From: a virus
Taxonomy: Duplodnaviria; Caudoviricetes
Direction: 5' to 3' (one strand)
Length of the DNA: 64,000 nt
IMG/VR virus record: IMGVR_UViG_3300021387_000199
Location: 70,295-134,294 of that record
Shown: positions 14,993 to 62,159 of the stretch, one piece after another
How the letters are laid out: the number at the start of each line of letters is the position of its first letter
Position numbering within the stretch: position 1 is the first letter of the stretch
Made by a program: the position numbers and the translations under genes
Notes under the pieces: model-generated
What the model was told of the DNA's origin: nothing
Databases searched by the model: none
What the model saw: the letters and a program-made list of their open reading frames with translations, nothing else

Positions 14993-15730
14993 ATGAGATA
15001 CGCAAGCGGAAAAACAAGATCGGCCAGGGCGATTGCTCAGGCAATTTGGACCGATATTGACAGACGGGGGGGTGATTTTTCCTCATTTGTCAGTCTATTT
15101 TGCGGCGGGCTATCAGTATAGACGAAGTTGGCTCCGCTGTTTAACAAGGTGATTCTAAATGATAAACAGGAATATTTGATCGAATTATACAAGGCATTGC
15201 AGAACGGCTGGCTGCCGCCGGAATCTTTGTCGGAAGAAGAATACCGACACATCAGAGACCATAAAGATGAGGATAAGCCCCTGACGGCCTTTGCCGGGTT
15301 TGGCTGTTCATTTGGCGGGAAGTGGTTTGGCGGATATGGTCGTCACGGTGTTAAAGATAACCACGCCGTTGAAAGAAGTATGTGTAAAGAATCAGGCCGG
15401 GCTCTTATGAGAGATCTGGAAATTTTGAAGAAAGCAGAATTTATGTGTCTGGACTATAGAGACATAGAAATCCCGAAAGGCAGCGTGATTTACGCCGACC
15501 CGCCATACAGGAATAAGATGGCGGCTTACGGCCTTCAGGATCAGTTTGATACTGATTGCTTCTGGGAATGGTGTCGCAAAAAGAGCCGCGACAATCTGAT
15601 CTACATATCTGAGCTTGAAGCGCCTGAAGATTTTGAAGTTATCTGGGAGAAACCGGTGTTAAGGCAACTTGCCAATTGCAACGCTGAGAATTTTATAGCG
15701 AAAGAGAAACTATTTAAACACAGAGATTAA
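14993..15730 (+). CDS. DNA adenine methyltransferase (D12/Dam class), 1 in-frame TAG at 15119
   Basis: RBS AAGGAG; MRYASGK...FVSLFCGGLSV*TKL (SAM motif I) in frame with IYADPPY. Confidence 0.85.
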
Positions 15731-41477: not shown

Positions 41478-41729
41478 ATGAAGTTACGAAACCTTTAGAA
41501 AGAAGACATTGAGCGGTTCTTTACCGTAGTCGACAAGTGCGACGAAGATGTAAAGCTCGTAATCAAGGATCAGGTAGAGCTAAACCTGAAGAGTAAGCTC
41601 AGTCAGTTTATGGCTCTGGTAGGGCTTTTCTCTCAGGCAAAAGTGCCGGAAATTGAGATTTTCTGCAAGTCTGATAACGACGTGAAGAGATTGATCGATT
41701 TTATGGTAGCGGATGGGGGAACATGGTAA
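41478..41729 (+). CDS. HPr-fold-like small protein, 1 in-frame TAG at 41496 (missed by the ORF track)
   Basis: RBS AAAGGAG; MKLRNL*KEDIERFFTVVDKC...LNLKSKLSQF. Confidence 0.7.
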
Positions 41730-41971
41730 GAAGAATGAAGCCTATTCATATAAAGCTTGATCTGGATGATCCAGATATTTTCAAACAGTTTTCTACCGAT
41801 GTTAATTCGTTCCGGTCTGATATAGACGCGAAATCCGGGAGCATCCACGTTGACGCGAAGAGTCTTCTCGCCATCGTGGCTCTCGGCAAACCGGAGTTTG
41901 ATGTAACTATAGTTAGCGCAGATACCGCCGAAATGGTGCGGTTTAAGAAAGTGATGGAGAAGTATACGTGA
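41723..41971 (+). CDS. HPr-like protein
   Basis: VDAKSLLAI, the HPr Ser46-region motif. Confidence 0.7.
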   Translation: MVRRMKPIHIKLDLDDPDIFKQFSTDVNSFRSDIDAKSGSIHVDAKSLLAIVALGKPEFDVTIVSADTAEMVRFKKVMEKYT

Positions 41972-42639
41972 AGTTCGAGAATTGGAAGGCCTTCAATTTT
42001 ATTGGAGCAATACAGGGGGCGAGAAATCCCTTTAACTCGTGGGAACGAATGGACTCATACGAACAAAATGGCAGTGATGTAGCTGATTAGATTGAACCCA
42101 ACAACATAGTAATCGGGCCAAATGACCTGAAACTGTGTCAGAATTTACTGAAGTCGGCAACAAAAGATCATAGAGATTCACATTCAAAATTCTTACGGCA
42201 AATCATGGTAAGCGTGGACGTAACTGCGCCGCTCTACTTTTTCAAAGAATGGGATACCTACAAGGTAGCAACTACGACCAACTCCACGTCAACAATGTGG
42301 AAGCTTGCCTCTACCCCTATCACAAGAGAATGTTTTGAGTTCGGGGATTATTCAGAAAAAGAGGGTCTCGATAACTTCTGGAGTGAATTGATAAATTATC
42401 TGGAACTTATCAGACAAACGTTTAATAAAACAAAAGACAAGGCTGATTGGAAGGAATTGATCCGCCTTTTGCCGGAATCGTGGTTACAGACCAGACACTG
42501 GACTGGAAACTATCAGGTTCTGCGCAACATGTATTTTGACCGCCGCAATCACAAACTCACTGAATGGAGCAAGGATTTTGTTGGCTGGGTGGAGCAGCTT
42601 CCCTATGCCAAAGAACTCATAATGTACGAAGGGAATTAA
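41968..42639 (+). CDS. ThyX-like phage protein, 1 in-frame TAG at 42088
   Basis: GARNPFNSW...IGPNDL...HSKFLRQI in frame with TAPLYFFKEWDTYK...STM...RRNHKLTEW. Confidence 0.75.
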
Positions 42640-48479: not shown

Positions 48480-48552
48480 CGCCCCGTCTTCTAGTGGTCA
48501 AGGAAAATGGGCCCTAACCCCATGAACGTGGGTTCGAACCCCACCGGGGTGA
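48480..48552 (+). tRNA. amber suppressor tRNA (anticodon CUA) with a tRNA-Glu-type body; CCA not encoded
   Basis: acceptor CGCCCCG/CGGGGTG, D arm TTCT-AGTGGTCAA-GGAA, anticodon stem ATGGG/CCCAT with loop CC-CTA-AC, variable region GAAC, T arm GTGGG-TTCGAAC-CCCAC. Confidence 0.9.
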
Positions 48553-52559: not shown

Positions 52560-54806
52560 TTGAGGACATTACTGATTTTCAGGGGATCCCCAGGTTGCGG
52601 AAAATCTACGTTCATCGCGAAGAATTACCTTACGCCGTACACTCTCTGCCCGGACACGATCAGGCAGCAGTTACAGGGATGGGTTCAGCTGCCAGATGGT
52701 AAGCTGGGTATTTCCGGTAAGAACGAGAAGAAGACCTGGGAGATCCTTTTTGATTGCCTTGAGCGCCGTATGCAGAACGGCAGTTTCACGGTAATAGACG
52801 CGACGAGTTCTAAAGCCACTGAAATGAACAAGTATAAGAAGTTGGCCGACGACTATAAGTACCGGATCTTCTGCGTAGACATGACAGATGTACCGATCGA
52901 CGAGTGCAAGCGTAGGAACCGACTGAGGGCTGAGTATAAACAGGTGCCGGATGAGACGATCGACAAGATGTACTCCAGATTTGCCACTCAGAAGATCCCG
53001 TCTGGTATCAAAGTGATAAAGCCTGAAGAACTGGATTCCATCTGGCTTCAGGAATTCGATCTTTCTTCCTATAAGAAGATCTGCGTGATCGGCGATGTTC
53101 ACGGTTGTTATTCAGCGCTGTCTAACTACATCGGGGAAATCTGTGATGATTATTTTTACATCTTTGTCGGCGACTACTTCGACAGAGGAATTGAGAACGC
53201 CGCCGTATTTCGATTCATTCAGGAACATATAGACAAGAAGAACTTCCTTTTCCTTGAAGGTAATCACGAGAGACATCTGAAGGATTACGGGGAGAATAGG
53301 CAGTCCAGATCGTGGGTGTTCAATAGTCTGACAGCGAAAGAGTTTAGCGAAGCCGGCATTTCCCGGGTAGCCGCCAGAAAGATGTACCATCGCTTCGGTC
53401 AGGTGGCTTGGATCAAGTACGGTGATAAACATTTCATAATCTCACACGGCGGATTAGCCCGCTGCCTGACAACAGGAATCGCGTTCACTAAGACCTGTAC
53501 AGATCAGTTCATAGCCGGCGTTGGACAGTATGCCGACATGGATCTGTGCGCTGAGTCTTTCTCTAAGACCTGTCCCGACAATTACTATCAGATCTTCGGA
53601 CATAGGAACATCATAGAGTCTCCTGTTCAGGTTGACAATCACAACTACTGCCTTGAGGGTCAGGTTGAATTTGGCAAGTACCTTCGCTGTGTAGAAATCT
53701 CTGAAGTGGGAACTAAAACCATAGAAACAAAGAACGACGTCTGGAGGCCCCTCCCTGAAGAGAAGAAAGAGGATGTGGTTCCTACTAAAACGGCTACTAC
53801 GGTAGAAGACTTCGTGAACTGGGCGAGGAAGAACCGTCGGTCTGTAATAGAGAAGAAATTTGTTCTTCAGGAAGGATCCGACAGTGAAGGCCACATTTCC
53901 TCGTTCAACTTTAGCCGTACCGCTTTCGAGAAAGGTGTCTGGAATAATATCACGACCAGAGCCCGCGGATTGTTCATCGACACCGACAAAAAGACGGTGT
54001 TTGCCAGATCGTACGACAAGTTCTTTAAGACCAATGAAGTCGACGCCACGAAGGAAGAAGCTCTGAGGCAGAACTTGAAGTTCCCAGTCACAGCGTATAA
54101 GAAGTACAACGGCTATCTGCTTCTGGCTTGCTACAATCCGTATCAGGATCGAATTGAAGTCGCCAGTAAATCCACCTTCGATGGGCCATTCGCGGAAAAC
54201 GGTAGAGCTGAGTTGTTGAGGCTTCTTTGTGAAAACGGCACGTATGATTATTTCAAGCAGTATCTGAAGGAACTGAACGTGACAGCGGTGTTTGAGTACG
54301 TAGATATAGAACGCGACCCCCATGTCGTAGAAGCCGAGAAGAGCCAGTTGATCCTTCTCGATCTTGTTTGCAACAAGCTAGAGTTTGAGAAGATTTTTTA
54401 CGACAGCCTTGTGGGACTTTCTAAGAACGTCGGCATCCCGTGTAAGGAAGTGGCCTGTACGTTCAATTCCTGGCGCGAGTATTACGACTTCTATAGAACT
54501 GAGAGAGACAAGGAGATTCCTTATAGAAATCTTCCGGTTTCAGAGCAGTACGAAGGATACGTTCTCGAAGACGCCACCGGATTCCAGTGGAAGCTGAAAT
54601 CGAATTACTACAACTTCTGGAAGTCGATGAGGTTCGTACTGAAGTCGTGTGTAAAGAAAGGCTACGTAGACAACACCAGCGGGCTCACGACACCTCTGGC
54701 GAATGATTTCTACGCTTTCTGTAGAGGATATTACGGCAAGGAGGATCCGCCGGCAGACATTATTTCCGCAAGAAAAGAGTTTTATGGATTAAGCGACAAG
54801 CGCTGA
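52560..54806 (+). CDS. polynucleotide kinase / metallophosphoesterase / RNA ligase fusion (RNA repair)
   Basis: GSPGCGKS; GDVHG, GDYFDRG, GNHE; ARGLF, DKFF, KYNG (ligase motif I), EGYV. Confidence 0.85.
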   Translation: MRTLLIFRGSPGCGKSTFIAKNYLTPYTLCPDTIRQQLQGWVQLPDGKLGISGKNEKKTWEILFDCLERRMQNGSFTVIDATSSKATEMNKYKKLADDYKYRIFCVDMTDVPIDECKRRNRLRAEYKQVPDETIDKMYSRFATQKIPSGIKVIKPEELDSIWLQEFDLSSYKKICVIGDVHGCYSALSNYIGEICDDYFYIFVGDYFDRGIENAAVFRFIQEHIDKKNFLFLEGNHERHLKDYGENRQSRSWVFNSLTAKEFSEAGISRVAARKMYHRFGQVAWIKYGDKHFIISHGGLARCLTTGIAFTKTCTDQFIAGVGQYADMDLCAESFSKTCPDNYYQIFGHRNIIESPVQVDNHNYCLEGQVEFGKYLRCVEISEVGTKTIETKNDVWRPLPEEKKEDVVPTKTATTVEDFVNWARKNRRSVIEKKFVLQEGSDSEGHISSFNFSRTAFEKGVWNNITTRARGLFIDTDKKTVFARSYDKFFKTNEVDATKEEALRQNLKFPVTAYKKYNGYLLLACYNPYQDRIEVASKSTFDGPFAENGRAELLRLLCENGTYDYFKQYLKELNVTAVFEYVDIERDPHVVEAEKSQLILLDLVCNKLEFEKIFYDSLVGLSKNVGIPCKEVACTFNSWREYYDFYRTERDKEIPYRNLPVSEQYEGYVLEDATGFQWKLKSNYYNFWKSMRFVLKSCVKKGYVDNTSGLTTPLANDFYAFCRGYYGKEDPPADIISARKEFYGLSDKR

Positions 54807-54864
54807 TATATCACATAGGAGAGAGTCGGAGGCCCGGCTCTCTGTATTATTAGAAGGAGGAGCC

Positions 54865-56097
54865 ATGTAGAACTTCAACGAATTCAAGGAATTATTGCAA
54901 CTGGTAACCGGGGATGATAAAATGTCTGTGGCTGATATCGAACGACTGCAACTTGCTCAAGAAAGGAGTTCGATATTGAAACAACATACCCACAAGATTT
55001 GGGAGTCAGGAGGTTATTTTAACACATATATCCCAGACCCTTCTGCTAAAAGAGGGTACCGTCTCAAAAGGAGCCGTACAAGAGAGGGATTAGAAGAAGC
55101 AATAATAAGGCAACACAAAGAAAATGAAGCAAATCCGACGATTGACGAAGTATTCGAAGAGTGGAACAACAAAAAGCTCGAAAACGGAAGTATCGTAGAA
55201 GCAACACATCTCAGGAATAAATATTGTTACGAAAGACACTTCGGTGAATTTGGCAAAAGAAGAATCAGGAACGTTCGTCCCGTAGAATTCCAAGATTTCT
55301 TAGAATCACAGATCAAAATACATCATATGAAAGCCAGGGGTTTTGCTAATCTGAAGGGAATAGTAAGAGGTTTTCTGAAGAGGGCGAAAAAGAATGGCTA
55401 CATTTCCTTCAGCGTAGAAGAAATGCTCAATGATATGGACGTTACTGATCGGCAATTCAATAGGAATCGAAAAAGGGATGACGAAGAAATCTTCTATGAT
55501 GATGAGTTAGACAGAATCATCGAAGCGATTAGGGAAGCCCCTTATCCCAATAACCTGGCTGTAGCGCTGATGTTTGGAACCGGAATGAGGGTTGGGGAAG
55601 TAGTTGCCTTGAAACATTCAGATTTTCATGGAATGTCGGTCACTATCCAGAGATCTGAAACCCGCTATAGGATGCCCGATGGGAAGTACAATTACCTGAT
55701 TCAGGATCATCCTAAGACAGAGGCCGGCTTTCGTACCATTGTCATTCCAGATAGTTTTAAATGGGTTGTGGACAAGCTGAAAACAAGCAACCCGTTTGGG
55801 GAATGGGTATTCGTAAAAAGGGATGGAAAAACCAGAATAACCACGAACACTATCCGTACAAGGATCAGAAGCTTGTGTAAAGAACTGGACATTCCTATTA
55901 GATCATCCCATAAGATCAGAAAAACATATGGTTCAATTCTTCTGGACAGCAATCTTGATTCAAAGTTCATTCAGAGTCAGATGGGCCATGCCAGTATTCA
56001 GATTACAGAAAACTTTTATCACAAAGATAGGCGCAGAATCGACCAGAAATCGCGCATTATCAATTCTGTGGAAGCTTTCAAAAAAAGTGCAATCTGA
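54865..56097 (+). CDS. int: tyrosine integrase; the second codon is TAG
   Basis: RBS AAGGAGG + ATG TAG AAC in frame; TGMRVGE; HKIRKTY; MGH..I..T..FY. Confidence 0.9.
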
Positions 56098-56112
56098 ATA
56101 TGTGCAAAAGTA

Positions 56113-56307
56113 GTGTTCACTTCCGTGTTCACTTGAACAATTGCTCAAATAATAAACCCCCGCAAACCCGCATAAACACTGGGGTTTTTGGAGGTCTATT
56201 CTCTGGAGCATATGGGATTCGAACGACCCCATAAAGCCGATATTTCCGCACAATTCCTAGGATTTTTTTACTTTGCAACGTGTCCACTGTGTTCACTGAG
56301 CAATTGC
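56113..56307. mobile_element. attP: tRNA-Ala 3' fragment (56204-56224, - strand) flanked by arm-type repeats
   Basis: reverse complement GTTCGAATCCCATATGCTCCA; GTGTTCAC repeats at 56113, 56125 and 56289, GTGTCCAC at 56280. Confidence 0.75.
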
Positions 56308-56423
56308 AATATATATGTTTGATATCAGCCGAATTAATTATATCACTTTACACCTATCCCCTCAAATATTAAAATGAATTTACGAATCTCGCAGACTCAT
56401 TTTTCTACTTGAGGAGGTTACAA

Positions 56424-56702
56424 ATGGGGGCTGAATTCGATTTCCCGGCAAGCTTGTTGAAAGAACTAGGCTTCGAAACTTGTTACCTAACCCCTGAACA
56501 GGAAGAGCGGTTCTATGAAGTTGTTGCGGCATCCATGTCGTATGAACACGATGCATTTTCTCGACATTACGCTCTGGGTATTCCTATTGATCAGATTGCC
56601 AGAGACGAGGGCCGGAATGTCAAGCAGATTCTTCGATGGATCATCAAGATAGAGGCGAATATTCAAGGCCATAAGGAATACATCCTGACTGGAAAATACT
56701 GA
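56424..56702 (+). CDS. small HTH protein (sigma region-4-like)
   Basis: RBS GAGGAGG; HYALGIPIDQIARDEGRNVKQI. Confidence 0.55.
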   Translation: MGAEFDFPASLLKELGFETCYLTPEQEERFYEVVAASMSYEHDAFSRHYALGIPIDQIARDEGRNVKQILRWIIKIEANIQGHKEYILTGKY

Positions 56703-56741: not shown

Positions 56742-57860
56742 TTACTCGCGTCTTCGTAGTGTTTCAACTGAACTCTTCAACTTCTCAACCGTATATTCCA
56801 GATCTTCTTTTGTCGTATCTCTACCCATCGTCAGCCGGAGGGATCCATTCGCTTCTTCGTCTGATAGCCCGATTGCTTTCAGGACGTGGCTAGGTTCATC
56901 GGTTCCTGTTTCACAGGCCGATCCTGAAGAGCAGTAGATCCCGTACATCCCCAGAAGCTCTACCAGTTCCTCGCCACGAATTCCGTCGAACACGAAAGAA
57001 GCATTATTCGGCAGCCGGTATACCGGATCCCCGGTGAGCTTACTTCCCGGTATTTCGTTCAGTATCCTCTTCGTAAGATACGATCTTAGCTCAATCAGTC
57101 TTACTGATTCAGGGCCTATCTTGTCACAGGATATCTTAGCGGCTTCAGCCATCGCGACTATACCAAATACGTTCTCTGTGCCGGCGCGGAATCCTCTTTC
57201 CTGAAGTCCGCCCTGAAGAAGAGGATCTAACCTGGTGCCTTTCCTGACGTACAGGAACCCAACCCCCTTCGGCCCACCAAACTTATGAGCGGAGGCGGAG
57301 ATGTAATCCGCCCGGATCTCATTCACGTTCAGGAGCTGGTGACCGTAATACTGTGTCGCGTCTGTGTGGAACTTAGCTCCGTATTCGTGACAGATTCCTG
57401 CGATCTCCTTAATCGGCTCAACTGTCCCGATCTCGTTATTGGCGGCCATAACTGACACGAGAGGCCAGCCGTGGGGCGCTCTGAGCCATTTCTAGACCTC
57501 TTTCGGGTCAACCCTACCAGTTTTACCTACAGAGAGATAGAAGGGCTATATGAAGGCGTTAGCCGGTCTCAGGATAGCGTGGTGTTCAATAGGAGTCGTC
57601 AGTACGGTTCCTGAACCCCAGAGAACAGTGTTGTTCGCTTCTGTAGCCCCTGAAGTGAAGTATATCTCTTCAGGCTAAGCACCGAGGGTATCCGCTATCG
57701 TCTATCGCGCTTGTTCAACAGCCGCCCGGGCTTCCTGGCCGAAAGAGTAGGGGCTGGACGGATTTCCCCAATTGTGGGTTAAATACGGCATACCCGCCTA
57801 TATCGCTTCCAGATACGGGCGGGTAGTGGCCGCGTTGTCTAAATATACTATCTTTTCCAT
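56742..57860 (-). CDS. iscS: cysteine desulfurase (IscS/NifS family), 5 in-frame TAG
   Basis: [47 protein letters not shown] all in one frame. Confidence 0.9.
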
Positions 57861-57914
57861 TTCTTTCCTTTCAAACAAAAAAGAACTCAAATCTGAATCT
57901 GTAGCAGATTTTTG

Positions 57915-59660
57915 TCAATCTCTTCGATTACGAATCGCATATAAGAGAACCAGAAGAACCCCGAATGAGACAAGGACTGAATAGACAAGGCGGGATATAG
58001 GTGTCTAATCGCCGGTCTTAGGCGGTTTCAGCGGGGTGGTAGTAGCGGTCGGCTTCGATATAGATTGAGAAAATCTTGAGGTAGTACCCTTTACATCCTG
58101 ACGTTTTCTGCTGTTCCCACGTACCCCTGAATCGTCGTCATCTTCATCGTTGCCCTAATCCGAATTATCCTCATCTCTATAGTCCTTGCTCCAATCGGCT
58201 ATCTTATACTCCTGTCCTTTCTTAAAATAGATTTCAGATTCTTCCTCTTCTTCAGGCTCTTTTTCGTCCTACCAGTATTCTGACTATTCAATTTCCGATT
58301 CGGGTCTATACATTTCCGATTCGCTTTCAGATTCGATCTCTGACTCAGACTCCGATTCCGATTCTTCTTCAGTTTCAGTCTAAATCTAAGACTCTTCTTC
58401 GATTTCCGTCTCGGATTCTTCCTATGTCTCGGTTTCTTCGGTTTCAACTTCGGTTTCTATATATTCTTCGGTTTCCGTCTCTATCTCGGTTTCCGTTTCT
58501 ATCCATTTTTCCGTTTCTGTCTCGGACTATATTTCAGTTATCAGTTCAGTCTCTTCAGTCTCAACCTATTCCGTTTCTGTCTACTCGGTTTCTATCGACT
58601 AAGTCTCAGTTTCTTCAGTTTCCGGCTCTTCGGGTTCCTGAATAGATCTATAAGGCCACATGTGACCCTATCCATAGGTTGACACGTTCCAGCCAAGCAG
58701 ACAGCCGTTCGTGTTTCCGCCTTTTACTTCAATGTTAGCGTAAGGCGCTATAATACAGCCTATTTCAGGCGTGAGTTCTGTAGGTACGACGACCCCCTCG
58801 GCGTAAGGATACGTAATACAGATCGGTTCAGACCCGGCGTTTTCTTCGCCCTGGGACAGCCCTACAACCTGAGGATTAGGAACGGTTCCTGAATCGAGAA
58901 CATTGATCACTGTAGTTTCCCCGGTATATTCGCCGGTTAGTCGGATTTTACAATAATTACCGCCCAGTATCACGTTGGTGATAGTTCCCCTCTGAATTTC
59001 GACCTACTGCCAAGACCACTGGATCCTGATAGGCTCAGCTCCAGCCGAGAGTTCCTGAACATAATCGATGGTATCAACGGCGGAAGCGTAGACCCACGCC
59101 CAGGATATGTATTCGTCCGATATAAAGATCGGATCACCATGGCTATAGTTGACTATCCCGTTCAGGGTAGTACCGTCTACGGTATTAGAAGAGCCTACAT
59201 ATAGCGGTACCCCGCTATACTTCGACCTTCCGTTAGGGCCGCCGGGTTTACTCACATAGCCGCCGATGTAGCTTGGTTCGTTTATATAAGGGGTGTCAGC
59301 AAAGTTATTAGTATTACCGGACAGATTCCCCCTGACAAGGAGACTGCCCATACAGTGTTGCTCTATATCAGCTGAACCGAAAGCTATTACCCCGAAACTG
59401 TTCAGGAGATAATCAAGATCGTAGTAACCCTGATAATAACCGTCAGTTTCCGCCGGGTATTCTTCGATTAGTCCGCCATAGTTTTCAATAATATTATCCT
59501 AATCTAATTCTGTTTCTGGAGAGTAGTCGACATATTCCCCGTCATAGTCTGGCACGATGATGTCGTCCTATGCGTCCGCAGAGATAAAGTACCTGAAGAG
59601 AGAGAAGAGTAGAAGAGCCGCCACCAAGTAAATGATTGCCGTTATTTTATTCTTCCCCAT
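57915..59660 (-). CDS. cell-wall-anchored protein: signal peptide, choice-of-anchor-A-like domain, E/T/S stalk, PKTGD sorting signal; 15 in-frame TAG
   Basis: 582 codons with no internal TAA/TGA; IIAPYA...G*GHMWPY; PKTGD*TP, then TM, then RNRR. Confidence 0.85.
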
Positions 59661-59684
59661 AGCAACCACCTCCTTTCAATGTTA

Positions 59685-59858
59685 TTAATCTCTAAGATCG
59701 TTCCTTTCCCGTTTGTCTGTAAACTTCTGATTGCCAGGTTTCTTTCCGGCGCGGTTCTTAATTCGAACACCGTACTGAGAAAGAGCGTAGGAATCTTCCT
59801 ACTCAGCGTAATTATCATACGAGTAACTGGTGTTATATACGGCTTCTCTTTTCTTCAT
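59685..59858 (-). CDS. small hypothetical protein, 1 in-frame TAG at 59801
   Basis: RBS AGGAG; ...YAE*EDSY... ends TAA. Confidence 0.5.
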
Positions 59859-59932
59859 ATAAATCTCCTAAAAATAAAAAAGAACAGGAGCTGGGCTCCT
59901 GTTAATATTGATGTATTCCAATACTATCGGCG

Positions 59933-60313
59933 TCAATCTCTTTTCGGCGGTTCAGTTGGCAGTCCAACAATCTTATGTGAGATCTGCTAAATTATACCAT
60001 TTCCATTATCCCGCCTATAAGCCTCATAGAGCGCATGATACACCTACCTCTAATCGACCGAGTAGAAGCCTTTAGAAATACAATTTTGGTAATTATTCAA
60101 TAGCATTGTGCGAGCCATGCCCAATGTCAGCTGATCGTTGGCCTCGTTTCTAATACGTTGCTTCTCAGCCTCCATTGCTTCTTTCTCTTCGCGTTCTTTG
60201 CGATATTTGGTATTGTTTTCGTCCCAGGTTTTCAATTTGTGTGTTATCATCGCCGTCAAAACTGAAACTAAGATCCCCATACATGTTGAGAGGATCGCGC
60301 TAAATATAGACAT
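59933..60313 (-). CDS. holin-associated/lysis-region membrane protein, 3 in-frame TAG
   Basis: RBS AAGGAGG; N-terminal TM; KGFYSVD*R*VYHALYEAYRRDNGNGII*QI...LP matches the phage LYxAY..xGNG family. Confidence 0.7.
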
Positions 60314-60370
60314 ATCAAATACCTCCTTCAAATAAAAAGAAGACCGGGCGTTAACCCGGCCTCTCACCAA

Positions 60371-60805
60371 TTAATCTTCGTCAGGGGCAGCGTCGCCCTC
60401 TTCGGCTTCATCTTCCTTCTCAGGACGATCAACCAGATAATTGTCGATGACTGCGAAGTCACTCACAGACAGGTCGGCATCTGCCAGTTTATCCAGATCT
60501 GACTCCTGCATCTTATACAGGTCGACATCTTCAGTCTGACTAAGAACCTCGGTGAGTTCCTCAACGAACTTGGGATAATTTTCTGAATCACGCTTTACGA
60601 CGATCTGTCCCTCAACTTCGGGATCCTCTTCACCGTACTTCTGAATCAGGTCATTACGTGTCTTTTCGTAATCGTCAGCGATCTTTGCCAGCTTCGACAG
60701 GTTCCTATAAGCCAGATAGGCAACCTTTCCGGTCAGGCCGGCGTTCGCTACCTTAGACATTGTTTCATTAATTGTGACGAGCTCGTTGATAGTAAATTTA
60801 CTCAT
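60371..60805 (-). CDS. hypothetical phage protein (post-tail region type)
   Basis: YEKTRNDLIQKYG motif; RBS. Confidence 0.65.
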   Translation of the reverse strand: MSKFTINELVTINETMSKVANAGLTGKVAYLAYRNLSKLAKIADDYEKTRNDLIQKYGEEDPEVEGQIVVKRDSENYPKFVEELTEVLSQTEDVDLYKMQESDLDKLADADLSVSDFAVIDNYLVDRPEKEDEAEEGDAAPDED

Positions 60806-60883
60806 AACTTTTATTTCCTTTCTTCTTAAAATCCTTAAATCCTAAAGTGTTACCGAAAACCCTTATTTTCGGCAGTTATTCCG

Positions 60884-61126
60884 TCATACTTCCTCCATCG
60901 ACGCCAAAATCGCCGTCCGGTATTCCTGAAGTAGAGAAATCAGGTTATCCCTAATCGCCGCTCCGATCCCGATAGACACATTCCCGCAAGAAGCGCGGGT
61001 ATTCAGTGTGAGACTGTGATACTGTTTGATATTCTTCAGGGCGTCGTCTACCTTGTTCAGTTCCTATTCGTAGCTCTAATACTTCGCCGTTCGTTCTTTT
61101 GCCTGTGTATATTCTTCGTTTGTCAT
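60884..61126 (-). CDS. hypothetical protein, 2 in-frame TAG (missed by the ORF track)
   Basis: RBS AAGGAGG; MTNEEYTQAKERTAKY*SYE*ELNKV... ends TGA. Confidence 0.7.
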
Positions 61127-61162
61127 CGCTAATCCTCCTTCCTTTCGTAGTGGTACAGTACC

Positions 61163-61194
61163 TACTTCTCAATTCCTGAAGAGATTAAGCCCTT
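61163..61194 (-). promoter_or_regulatory. phage-specific bipartite promoter, copy 6
   Basis: AAGGGCTT-N15-TGAGAAGTA on the - strand. Confidence 0.7.
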
Positions 61195-61258
61195 GATCTA
61201 TTGAGGTGAGAAGAGATTAGTGATATGATTAAACGAGTTGAAAAGGAGGTATTGTCAT

Positions 61259-61798
61259 ATGAAACTGAGATTTAAAAGCTTTGTTTTATCTGTATTACTT
61301 CTCCTCTGTATATCTGTTCCGGCGATAGCAGAGGAAGCCTTACCAGTTGTTTTTTCATTCCCTCAGAAAACGTACACAGTCAATCCGGGCAAAACGACCA
61401 CCATTAAGCCGCTTCTTCCTGAAGGGGTGAAAGTCGTTAAGTGGAAGGTAAGCAACAAGAAGATCGTTAAGATCAGCCAGAAGGGCAAAATCAAGGGGAT
61501 CAAAAAGGGTAAGGTAAAAGTTACCGCCATCTCAAACACCGGCGAGAAGATTGTATGTAAAGTCAAAGTCGTACCGAAAAAGAAAACTACGGCAACAACC
61601 GCAAAAAAGAAATCTTCCTCAAAAAAGAAGAGTAGTAGCGGCGGCGGTTCTTCCGGTGGTGGTACGGTCTACTGGACCCCTAGTGGGAGCGTGTATCATT
61701 ACTCCGCCGGCTGTTCTACCCTGAGCAGATCCAGAACTGTATATTCGGGGACAATAGCTGAAAGCGGAAAACCAAGAGGCTGCAAAGTGTGTGGGTAA
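61259..61798 (+). CDS. secreted Ig-like (Big_2) protein with a C-terminal His/Cys metal-binding domain
   Basis: signal peptide; WKVSNKKIVKISQKGKIKGIKKG; VYWTPSGSVYH...C...CKVC. Confidence 0.8.
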   Translation: MKLRFKSFVLSVLLLLCISVPAIAEEALPVVFSFPQKTYTVNPGKTTTIKPLLPEGVKVVKWKVSNKKIVKISQKGKIKGIKKGKVKVTAISNTGEKIVCKVKVVPKKKTTATTAKKKSSSKKKSSSGGGSSGGGTVYWTPSGSVYHYSAGCSTLSRSRTVYSGTIAESGKPRGCKVCG

Positions 61799-61935
61799 TA
61801 TCTTTTTCTCCCAGGAGCGGGCGGGCTTAGGCTCGTCCGTTTCCGCGTATATTCCGCAAAGAGTACTTTTCGGAAGGCTCTGGGGTTACAGGCAAAATAA
61901 AAAAGACCCTCACCAGGAGAGTCTTTCTATCTTTT

Positions 61936-62157
61936 TCAATTTTTCAGAAGTTCTAAAACTTCCTCAACGGTCTTGCCGGAATCCTTGAACGCCGCCATGA
62001 GCGTCTTTATTTTCTCGGCCTCTTTCTCTTTCAGGAGATCTTTGAGTTCAGCTTTCTTTTCTTTGATCGTCTCGCTGAGTTCCTGAATTTCTGCTTCGAC
62101 CTGTTCGATCCTCTGGTCTATAGTAAGGTCGACTTTCTTTTTGCGTCCTCTTGGCAT
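61936..62157 (-). CDS. small coiled-coil protein
   Basis: RBS GAGGAGG; MPRGRKK...SGKTVEEVL. Confidence 0.7.
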   Translation of the reverse strand: MPRGRKKKVDLTIDQRIEQVEAEIQELSETIKEKKAELKDLLKEKEAEKIKTLMAAFKDSGKTVEEVLELLKN

Positions 62158-62159
62158 GG

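Follow-up and report, generated by a model that had tools for sequence, protein, structure and literature searches.

The tyrosine integrase gene of a TAG-recoded phage most likely starts at an ATG that is followed directly by a TAG, and sequence comparisons suggest that the full-length enzyme is probably made only when the TAG-reading tRNA of the phage is active. The gene (54865–56097, plus strand) lies in the 64,000-nucleotide stretch of DNA analysed here (the window), which is the second half of a 134,294-bp single virus contig from ruminant gut. Recoding is thought to silence late and lysis genes while those for lysogeny, the integrase foremost among them, can still be read by the host, and an integrase start followed by a reassigned stop codon is a counter-example to host-readable lysogeny genes. 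The difference in code has been proposed as a lysis–lysogeny switch, and integrases of recoded prophages were reported to avoid TAG, the few N-terminal cases being ascribed to wrong start calls (Borges et al., bioRxiv 10.1101/2021.08.26.457843). The initial annotation of this DNA had called a gated integrase unexpected, and a TAG in the integrase does run contrary to this published pattern; the case described here resists the start-miscall explanation better than most, though a miscall may still be at work.

Recoded genome and suppressor tRNA

The genome is organised as two blocks of opposite strand. The minus-strand late block spans genome positions 3–55101 and window positions 56742–64000, holds 185 in-frame TAGs in 48 genes (~1.0 per 100 codons) and includes a portal, a virion protein, an endolysin and a tail protein. 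The plus-strand block of ~125 genes contains almost no TAG, either as a sense codon or as a stop, and the integrase is its second-last gene. A tRNA with the anticodon CUA, which reads UAG, is encoded 6.3 kb upstream of the integrase (48480–48552, plus strand; detected by ARAGORN and matching the Rfam tRNA family with 50.5 bits). The density of in-frame TAGs in the late block and the presence of this tRNA bear out the earlier view of the phage as TAG-recoded.

The core of the CUA tRNA is presumably of the Glu type (U11–A24, U13–G22 and a 4-nt variable loop), according to general tRNA identity rules. Its anticodon loop reads CCCUAAC, and position 33 is a C in the Rfam alignment, not the near-universal U. 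When the tRNA was compared by BLAST with 301 Bacillota genomes, the matches were confined to the T-arm and are uninformative on its ancestry. The gene directly upstream of the integrase (52560–54806) encodes a polynucleotide kinase/phosphatase–RNA ligase. This 748-aa protein joins kinase (AAA_33), metallophosphatase and T4-type RNA ligase parts and resembles Pnkp/Rnl RNA repair proteins. A Pfam search with the genes of the divergent junction and with the ORF at 56424–56702 detected no repressor or excisionase, and a late protein of 6811 aa had no relative in the PDB.

Assignment of TAG to glutamate

We determined the meaning of TAG from alignments of two proteins and from codon usage. In the late-block cysteine desulfurase, which carries five TAGs, Glu outnumbers every other residue in each TAG column (32–50 of ~139 representatives) and Gln is found in 3–11 of ~139 (2–8%). 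In a control on the same protein, Glu ranked first at 22 of its 32 own Glu columns and at one of its six own Gln columns. The two TAG columns of PhoH hold E in 81/104 and D in 90/104 relatives sharing 47–53% identity, and the alignment of TAG with Gln in homologues that identifies genetic code 15 (TAG = Gln) was not observed. Codon usage points the same way: GAG occurs 2.62 times per 100 codons in the late block versus 3.72 in the plus-strand block, a deficit similar to the late-block TAG frequency (1.01), which suggests that TAG replaces GAG. As judged from these columns, TAG is Glu and not Gln in this phage, and the reading of the integrase N-terminus as MENFNEFKELL put forward in the initial annotation stands.

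This assignment bears on public database entries from this phage group (P0003, P0008, P0128–P0130 and P0294), in which TAG is rendered as Q using code 15 or genes are truncated. The entries beginning MQN are code-15 renderings of the integrase TAG, and both pipeline versions of the protein, truncated or MQN..., are probably wrong here.

The integrase start region

The start region reads ...ttagAAGGAGGagccATGTAGAACTTCAAC... and comprises, on the plus strand, a Shine-Dalgarno (SD) sequence AAGGAGG (54854–54860), the most likely start codon ATG (54865–54867) and a codon 2 TAG (54868–54870) that the phage tRNA(CUA) most likely decodes as Glu. After the TAG, which is the only one in the 410-codon gene, the frame stays open until the TGA at 56095–56097. 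Both the letters and the ORF to 56097 agree with the order of elements given in the initial annotation, which had also taken the SD–ATG to be the start of the integrase frame. Several observations uphold the latter claim. The spacing of AAGGAG plus 5 nt is the norm of genes in the plus-strand block, where a 5-mer SD precedes 66/101 called starts versus 19/516 internal start-like codons, making a chance SD at ATG 54865 unlikely. In the family alignment, moreover, M1 coincides with the initiating Met of relatives that use the standard code (P0020, P0023 and P0030; ~45% identity). N-termini such as MNNLQ... and MNSLQ... occur among relatives at this identity, with D, N, S or R at residue 2.

The aligned N-terminus extends beyond the first residue. 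A conserved E-[LI]-L motif corresponds to residues 9–11 of the integrase, and E9 and L10 are encoded upstream of TTG 54895, the earliest codon beyond the TAG that could serve as a start. Comparison of the N-terminus with homologs, the check that had been proposed for this start, hence places M1 on the relatives' start Met and conserved residues ahead of the next start.

At 54865 the sequence shows the hallmark of a start-stop minigene, a start codon with its own SD and a stop as the very next codon. In bacteria, start-stop minigenes and short, translationally coupled leader ORFs place a strong SD and a start with a stop right behind it ahead of a longer frame, and ribosomes may re-initiate at a start close by. 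Unlike in such minigenes, the stop here is the one codon reassigned by the phage, shares the frame of the main ORF and is aligned to the coding sequence of relatives.

A 10-bp hairpin (54820–54843, plus strand) lies between the RNA-repair gene and the integrase SD. It is a terminator-like match, is the sole stable fold in the region and is kept in a related contig, L003, despite unrelated upstream sequence; possible roles are those of a terminator or of a stem-loop at the 5′ end of the int mRNA. Folding of 54810–54950 revealed no structure other than this upstream hairpin (z = 0). The base after the integrase TAG, an A, is typical of sense TAGs in this phage and equally of GAG, and does not discriminate between readings.

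Downstream starts and the integrase fold

The integrase is a member of the tyrosine recombinase family: residues 210–388 match PF00589 (E 3.6e-22), the protein matches the phrog_1 integrase profile (E 3e-46), and R242, K284, H349, R352, H375 and Y385 are invariant in an alignment with 30 relatives. We take these residues to fill the catalytic roles R-K-H-R-H/W-Y. The AlphaFold model has a mean pLDDT of 82 and shows a helix at residues 22–39 followed by an arm-binding fold (residues 46–88) made of a three-stranded sheet and a helix. Residues 1–20 have a pLDDT of ~50 and are the least conserved part of the family alignment, and a search with residues 1–60 alone yielded nothing further.

This architecture supports an alternative that we hold to be possible though somewhat unlikely, namely that the working integrase starts at TTG 54895 or ATG 54922 and is made independently of the tRNA, the SD–ATG–TAG being a minigene that is either inert or feeds or throttles ribosomes. 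Because the folded parts begin after residue 21, forms initiated at TTG 54895 (codon 11) or at the in-frame ATG 54922–54924 (codon 20) keep every folded domain and, on the model, could be functional. A shorter integrase is thus perhaps fully active, in which case the TAG perhaps gates nothing. Gene callers using table 11 produce integrases of 400, 391 and 373 aa: the longest ORF is the 400-aa one from TTG 54895, where P0002 begins, the 391-aa form is found in the database, and relatives with at least 62% identity are mostly called short there. TTG 54895 also has an SD-like AAGGAA 3–4 nt ahead of it (54886–54897 for motif, 3-nt spacer and codon, plus strand). Published experience leans the same way, recoded-prophage integrases avoiding TAG and N-terminal cases being attributed to miscalled starts (Borges et al., 10.1101/2021.08.26.457843).

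Several features of the region argue against a downstream start. The AAGGAA is a weaker motif with a shorter spacing than the block norm, and the position of ATG 54922 is an Ile in P0003 and hence not conserved. The stretch from ATG to TTG is open, indel-free and encodes the conserved E9 and L10, and a minigene would need neither the frame of the main ORF nor alignment to the relatives' start Met.

Early TAGs in other plus-strand genes

The integrase is one of five plus-strand block genes in which a strong SD and start are followed by a TAG within 13 codons. The others, all on the plus strand, encode an 83-aa protein (start at 41478, TAG at codon 7, no alternative start until codon 45), a PD-(D/E)XK exonuclease (34632, codon 8), an ERCC4-type nuclease (38935, codon 12) and a SPOR-domain lysin-like protein (49161, codon 13, with an ATG directly after the TAG). 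Three of the five are DNA-cutting or recombination enzymes. In the ERCC4-type nuclease, the PHROG profile begins at the TAG, eight codons ahead of the next ATG, while the 49161 leader ends in TAG-ATG, which resembles ordinary stop-start coupling and so favours the downstream-start alternative.

Sense TAGs fall within the first 12 codons in 4/8 cases in the plus-strand block versus 2/185 in the late block, a post hoc comparison in which the eight rest on our own start calls and the 49161 start is left out. Deliberate gating would account for this pattern, as would tolerance of TAGs at sites where re-initiation can rescue the protein. Away from gene starts, TAG is codon 43 of a D12-class adenine methyltransferase (14993–15730) and codon 41 of a phrog_6721 protein (41968–42639), and it falls within the Pfam match of the former and the profile match of the latter, so that a few sense TAGs of the plus-strand block are unambiguous.

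Conservation of the ATG–TAG start

The start was compared with that of L003, an independent rumen metagenome contig that shares ~80% nucleotide and 90% protein identity with the phage over 54809–57032. The L003 start region reads AAGGAGagactATGTAGAAC: the 12 nt ATGTAGAACTTC are identical to those of the phage and the SD is kept as AAGGAG, whereas the spacer and the upstream gene are different. Retention of this one codon in L003 is not significant taken alone, as ~0.5 would be expected by chance at 80% identity. Contigs of four further runs (cattle, sheep and goat gut plus one other source) also cover 54865–54870. In three of these runs, for which all differences are listed, none falls at these positions; for the fourth run, X4, the differences are listed in part.

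A 90% protein cluster contains 410-aa MQN... and 391-aa forms of identical sequence, a pair that code-15 and code-11 callers would produce on meeting a TAG, and another MQN... relative, P0008, stands at 68% identity. The two lineages contribute ~14 distinct close sequences, none of which has MEN, GAG or another sense variant at codon 2. The P0004 lineage, which is 80% identical and represented by a protein call only, begins MKVAELL, lacks a Q near the N-terminus and shows no break, so the TAG is perhaps not universal in the clade. A scan of JGI metagenomes identified L003, L004 (the same phage lacking the N-terminus) and L005 (42% identity). IMG/VR scans for integrase relatives gave none above 33% identity, GenBank phages gave no match to the integrase, and GTDB species genomes contained relatives at 32% identity or less and no close copy.

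These sequences bear on whether the TAG has arisen by neutral tolerance, that is, by drift from GAG to TAG at a weakly constrained N-terminus where lytic suppression or re-initiation suffices and the codon has no regulatory role. TAG seems to stand in for GAG across the genome, residue 2 varies among relatives, and surviving TAGs are expected to collect at the least harmful sites of a block whose function cannot rely on the suppressor, which agrees with the 4/8 versus 2/185 distribution. We nonetheless consider this account improbable, as the uniformity of codon 2 in both lineages speaks against drift and the early-TAG genes are a non-random set made up of the integrase, two nucleases and the lysin-like protein. 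A decaying gene, or a sequencing or assembly error, has nothing in its favour except the stop codon itself and is extremely unlikely given an otherwise intact ORF with all catalytic residues and an attP-like region better conserved than the genes that flank it. Retention of ATG–TAG in the second lineage and its coverage by contigs from other runs, three of them without change, indicate that it is not an error.

A proposed code-dependent control of the integrase

On balance, we lean towards the reading in which ATG 54865 is the genuine start and the UAG is decoded as Glu, making full-length integrase dependent on the suppressor. Codon 2 would be read as glutamate by the phage tRNA(CUA), giving a protein that begins Met-Glu-Asn. 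If the tRNA were lacking or in short supply, ribosomes recruited by the strong SD would stop after fMet, tying the full-length enzyme to the suppressor state of the cell, and integrase output would fall to the level of re-initiation at TTG 54895 or ATG 54922. We infer that the tRNA decodes codon 2 of the integrase itself and that termination wins otherwise. That the TAG is a selected gate timing integration or excision seems doubtful at present, and the suggestion of the initial annotation that excision happens only after the code switch is conjecture.

We also put forward, tentatively, that the early-TAG genes form an amber-leader set through which the tRNA-Glu(CUA) times DNA-cutting and recombination enzymes. 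Although encoded in an early-type block, such enzymes would reach efficient synthesis only once the code has switched, which in the case of the integrase would couple attP recombination to the suppressor state. If the TAG truly gates the integrase, the switch of genetic code would govern both lysis and recombination, and a few early N-terminal ambers would amount to a compact timer for dangerous DNA enzymes.

A precedent for such coupling is offered by prfB, the gene for release factor 2, in which an early in-frame UGA and a +1 frameshift sense RF2. In both prfB and the integrase described here, an early in-frame stop ties protein yield to the state of the decoding machinery. Unlike in prfB, there is no frameshift, and the factor sensed would be the phage suppressor tRNA.

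Among recoded phages, the Garnet and Topaz prophages (Borges et al.) resemble this genome in having a recoded late module, an early/lysogeny module compatible with the standard code and a tyrosine integrase beside an att site in a tRNA gene. Their integrases are, however, among the few genes without an in-frame TAG, whereas the integrase here has one at codon 2. In further contrast to these prophages, the TAG stands behind a strong SD at the family's own start and denotes Glu, not Gln.

The attP-like site downstream of the integrase

The 320 bp 3′ of the integrase gene (56098–56420) are better conserved between the phage and L003 than the integrase or the next ORF. They contain arm-type repeats on the plus strand (56113–56144), in which GTGTTCACTT occurs twice and is followed by TGAACAATTGC; these are nearly identical in L003. 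The probable attP core (56204–56226, minus strand) is conserved in L003 and duplicates the 3′-terminal part of a tRNA-Ala gene. A hairpin with the loop GCATAAACACT (56160–56190, minus strand) lies 3′ of this tRNA end, and a second set of arm-type repeats consists of GTGTCCACT, GTGTTCACTG and TGAGCAATTGC (56280–56307, plus strand). The GTGTYCACT repeats form two pairs, each followed by TGARCAATTGC, and 4/5 copies in the genome are near the attP core.

Repeat pairs flanking a reverse-complement tRNA 3′ end are the layout of an attP aimed at a tRNA gene. When the pattern TTCGAATCCCRTATGCTCCA was searched in 401 Bacillota genomes, two of the three matches lay at the 3′ termini of tRNA-Ala genes. 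Such a gene is the probable integration target of the phage, and we take the integrase and the attP-like site to be a functional integration module. The arrangement is that of lambda-type modules, including those of phages that insert into tRNA genes and bring the tRNA 3′ end with them, in which int is likewise followed by a ~200-bp attP-like region with paired arm repeats around a core, here a tRNA 3′ end, although the lambda scheme has no stop-codon control at codon 2. The contigs of the four runs displayed no joints or prophage junction, GTDB species genomes held no close copy, and neither an attB nor an excisionase was identified. Loose-ended short matches at 56147–56190 were considered as attB and rejected, being copies of the hairpin motif from other organisms.

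The hairpin motif itself is widespread. The 11-nt loop GCATAAACACT is conserved on variable stems and recurs in unrelated Bacillota genomes as well as in other contigs of the same metagenomes; L015, L016, L017, L020 and L022 carry it. In L017 it lies beside an apparent tRNA 3′ end, as in the phage, although ARAGORN called no tRNA there. The hairpin may be a common type of terminator that the phage copied along with the tRNA end.

Past the attP-like site lies a 92-aa ORF (56424–56702), for which no family match was found. It is preceded by a promoter-like site (56347–56375) and a highly conserved leader, while its coding part diverges quickly between the phage and its relative; its product could be a recombination directionality factor or a small regulatory protein.
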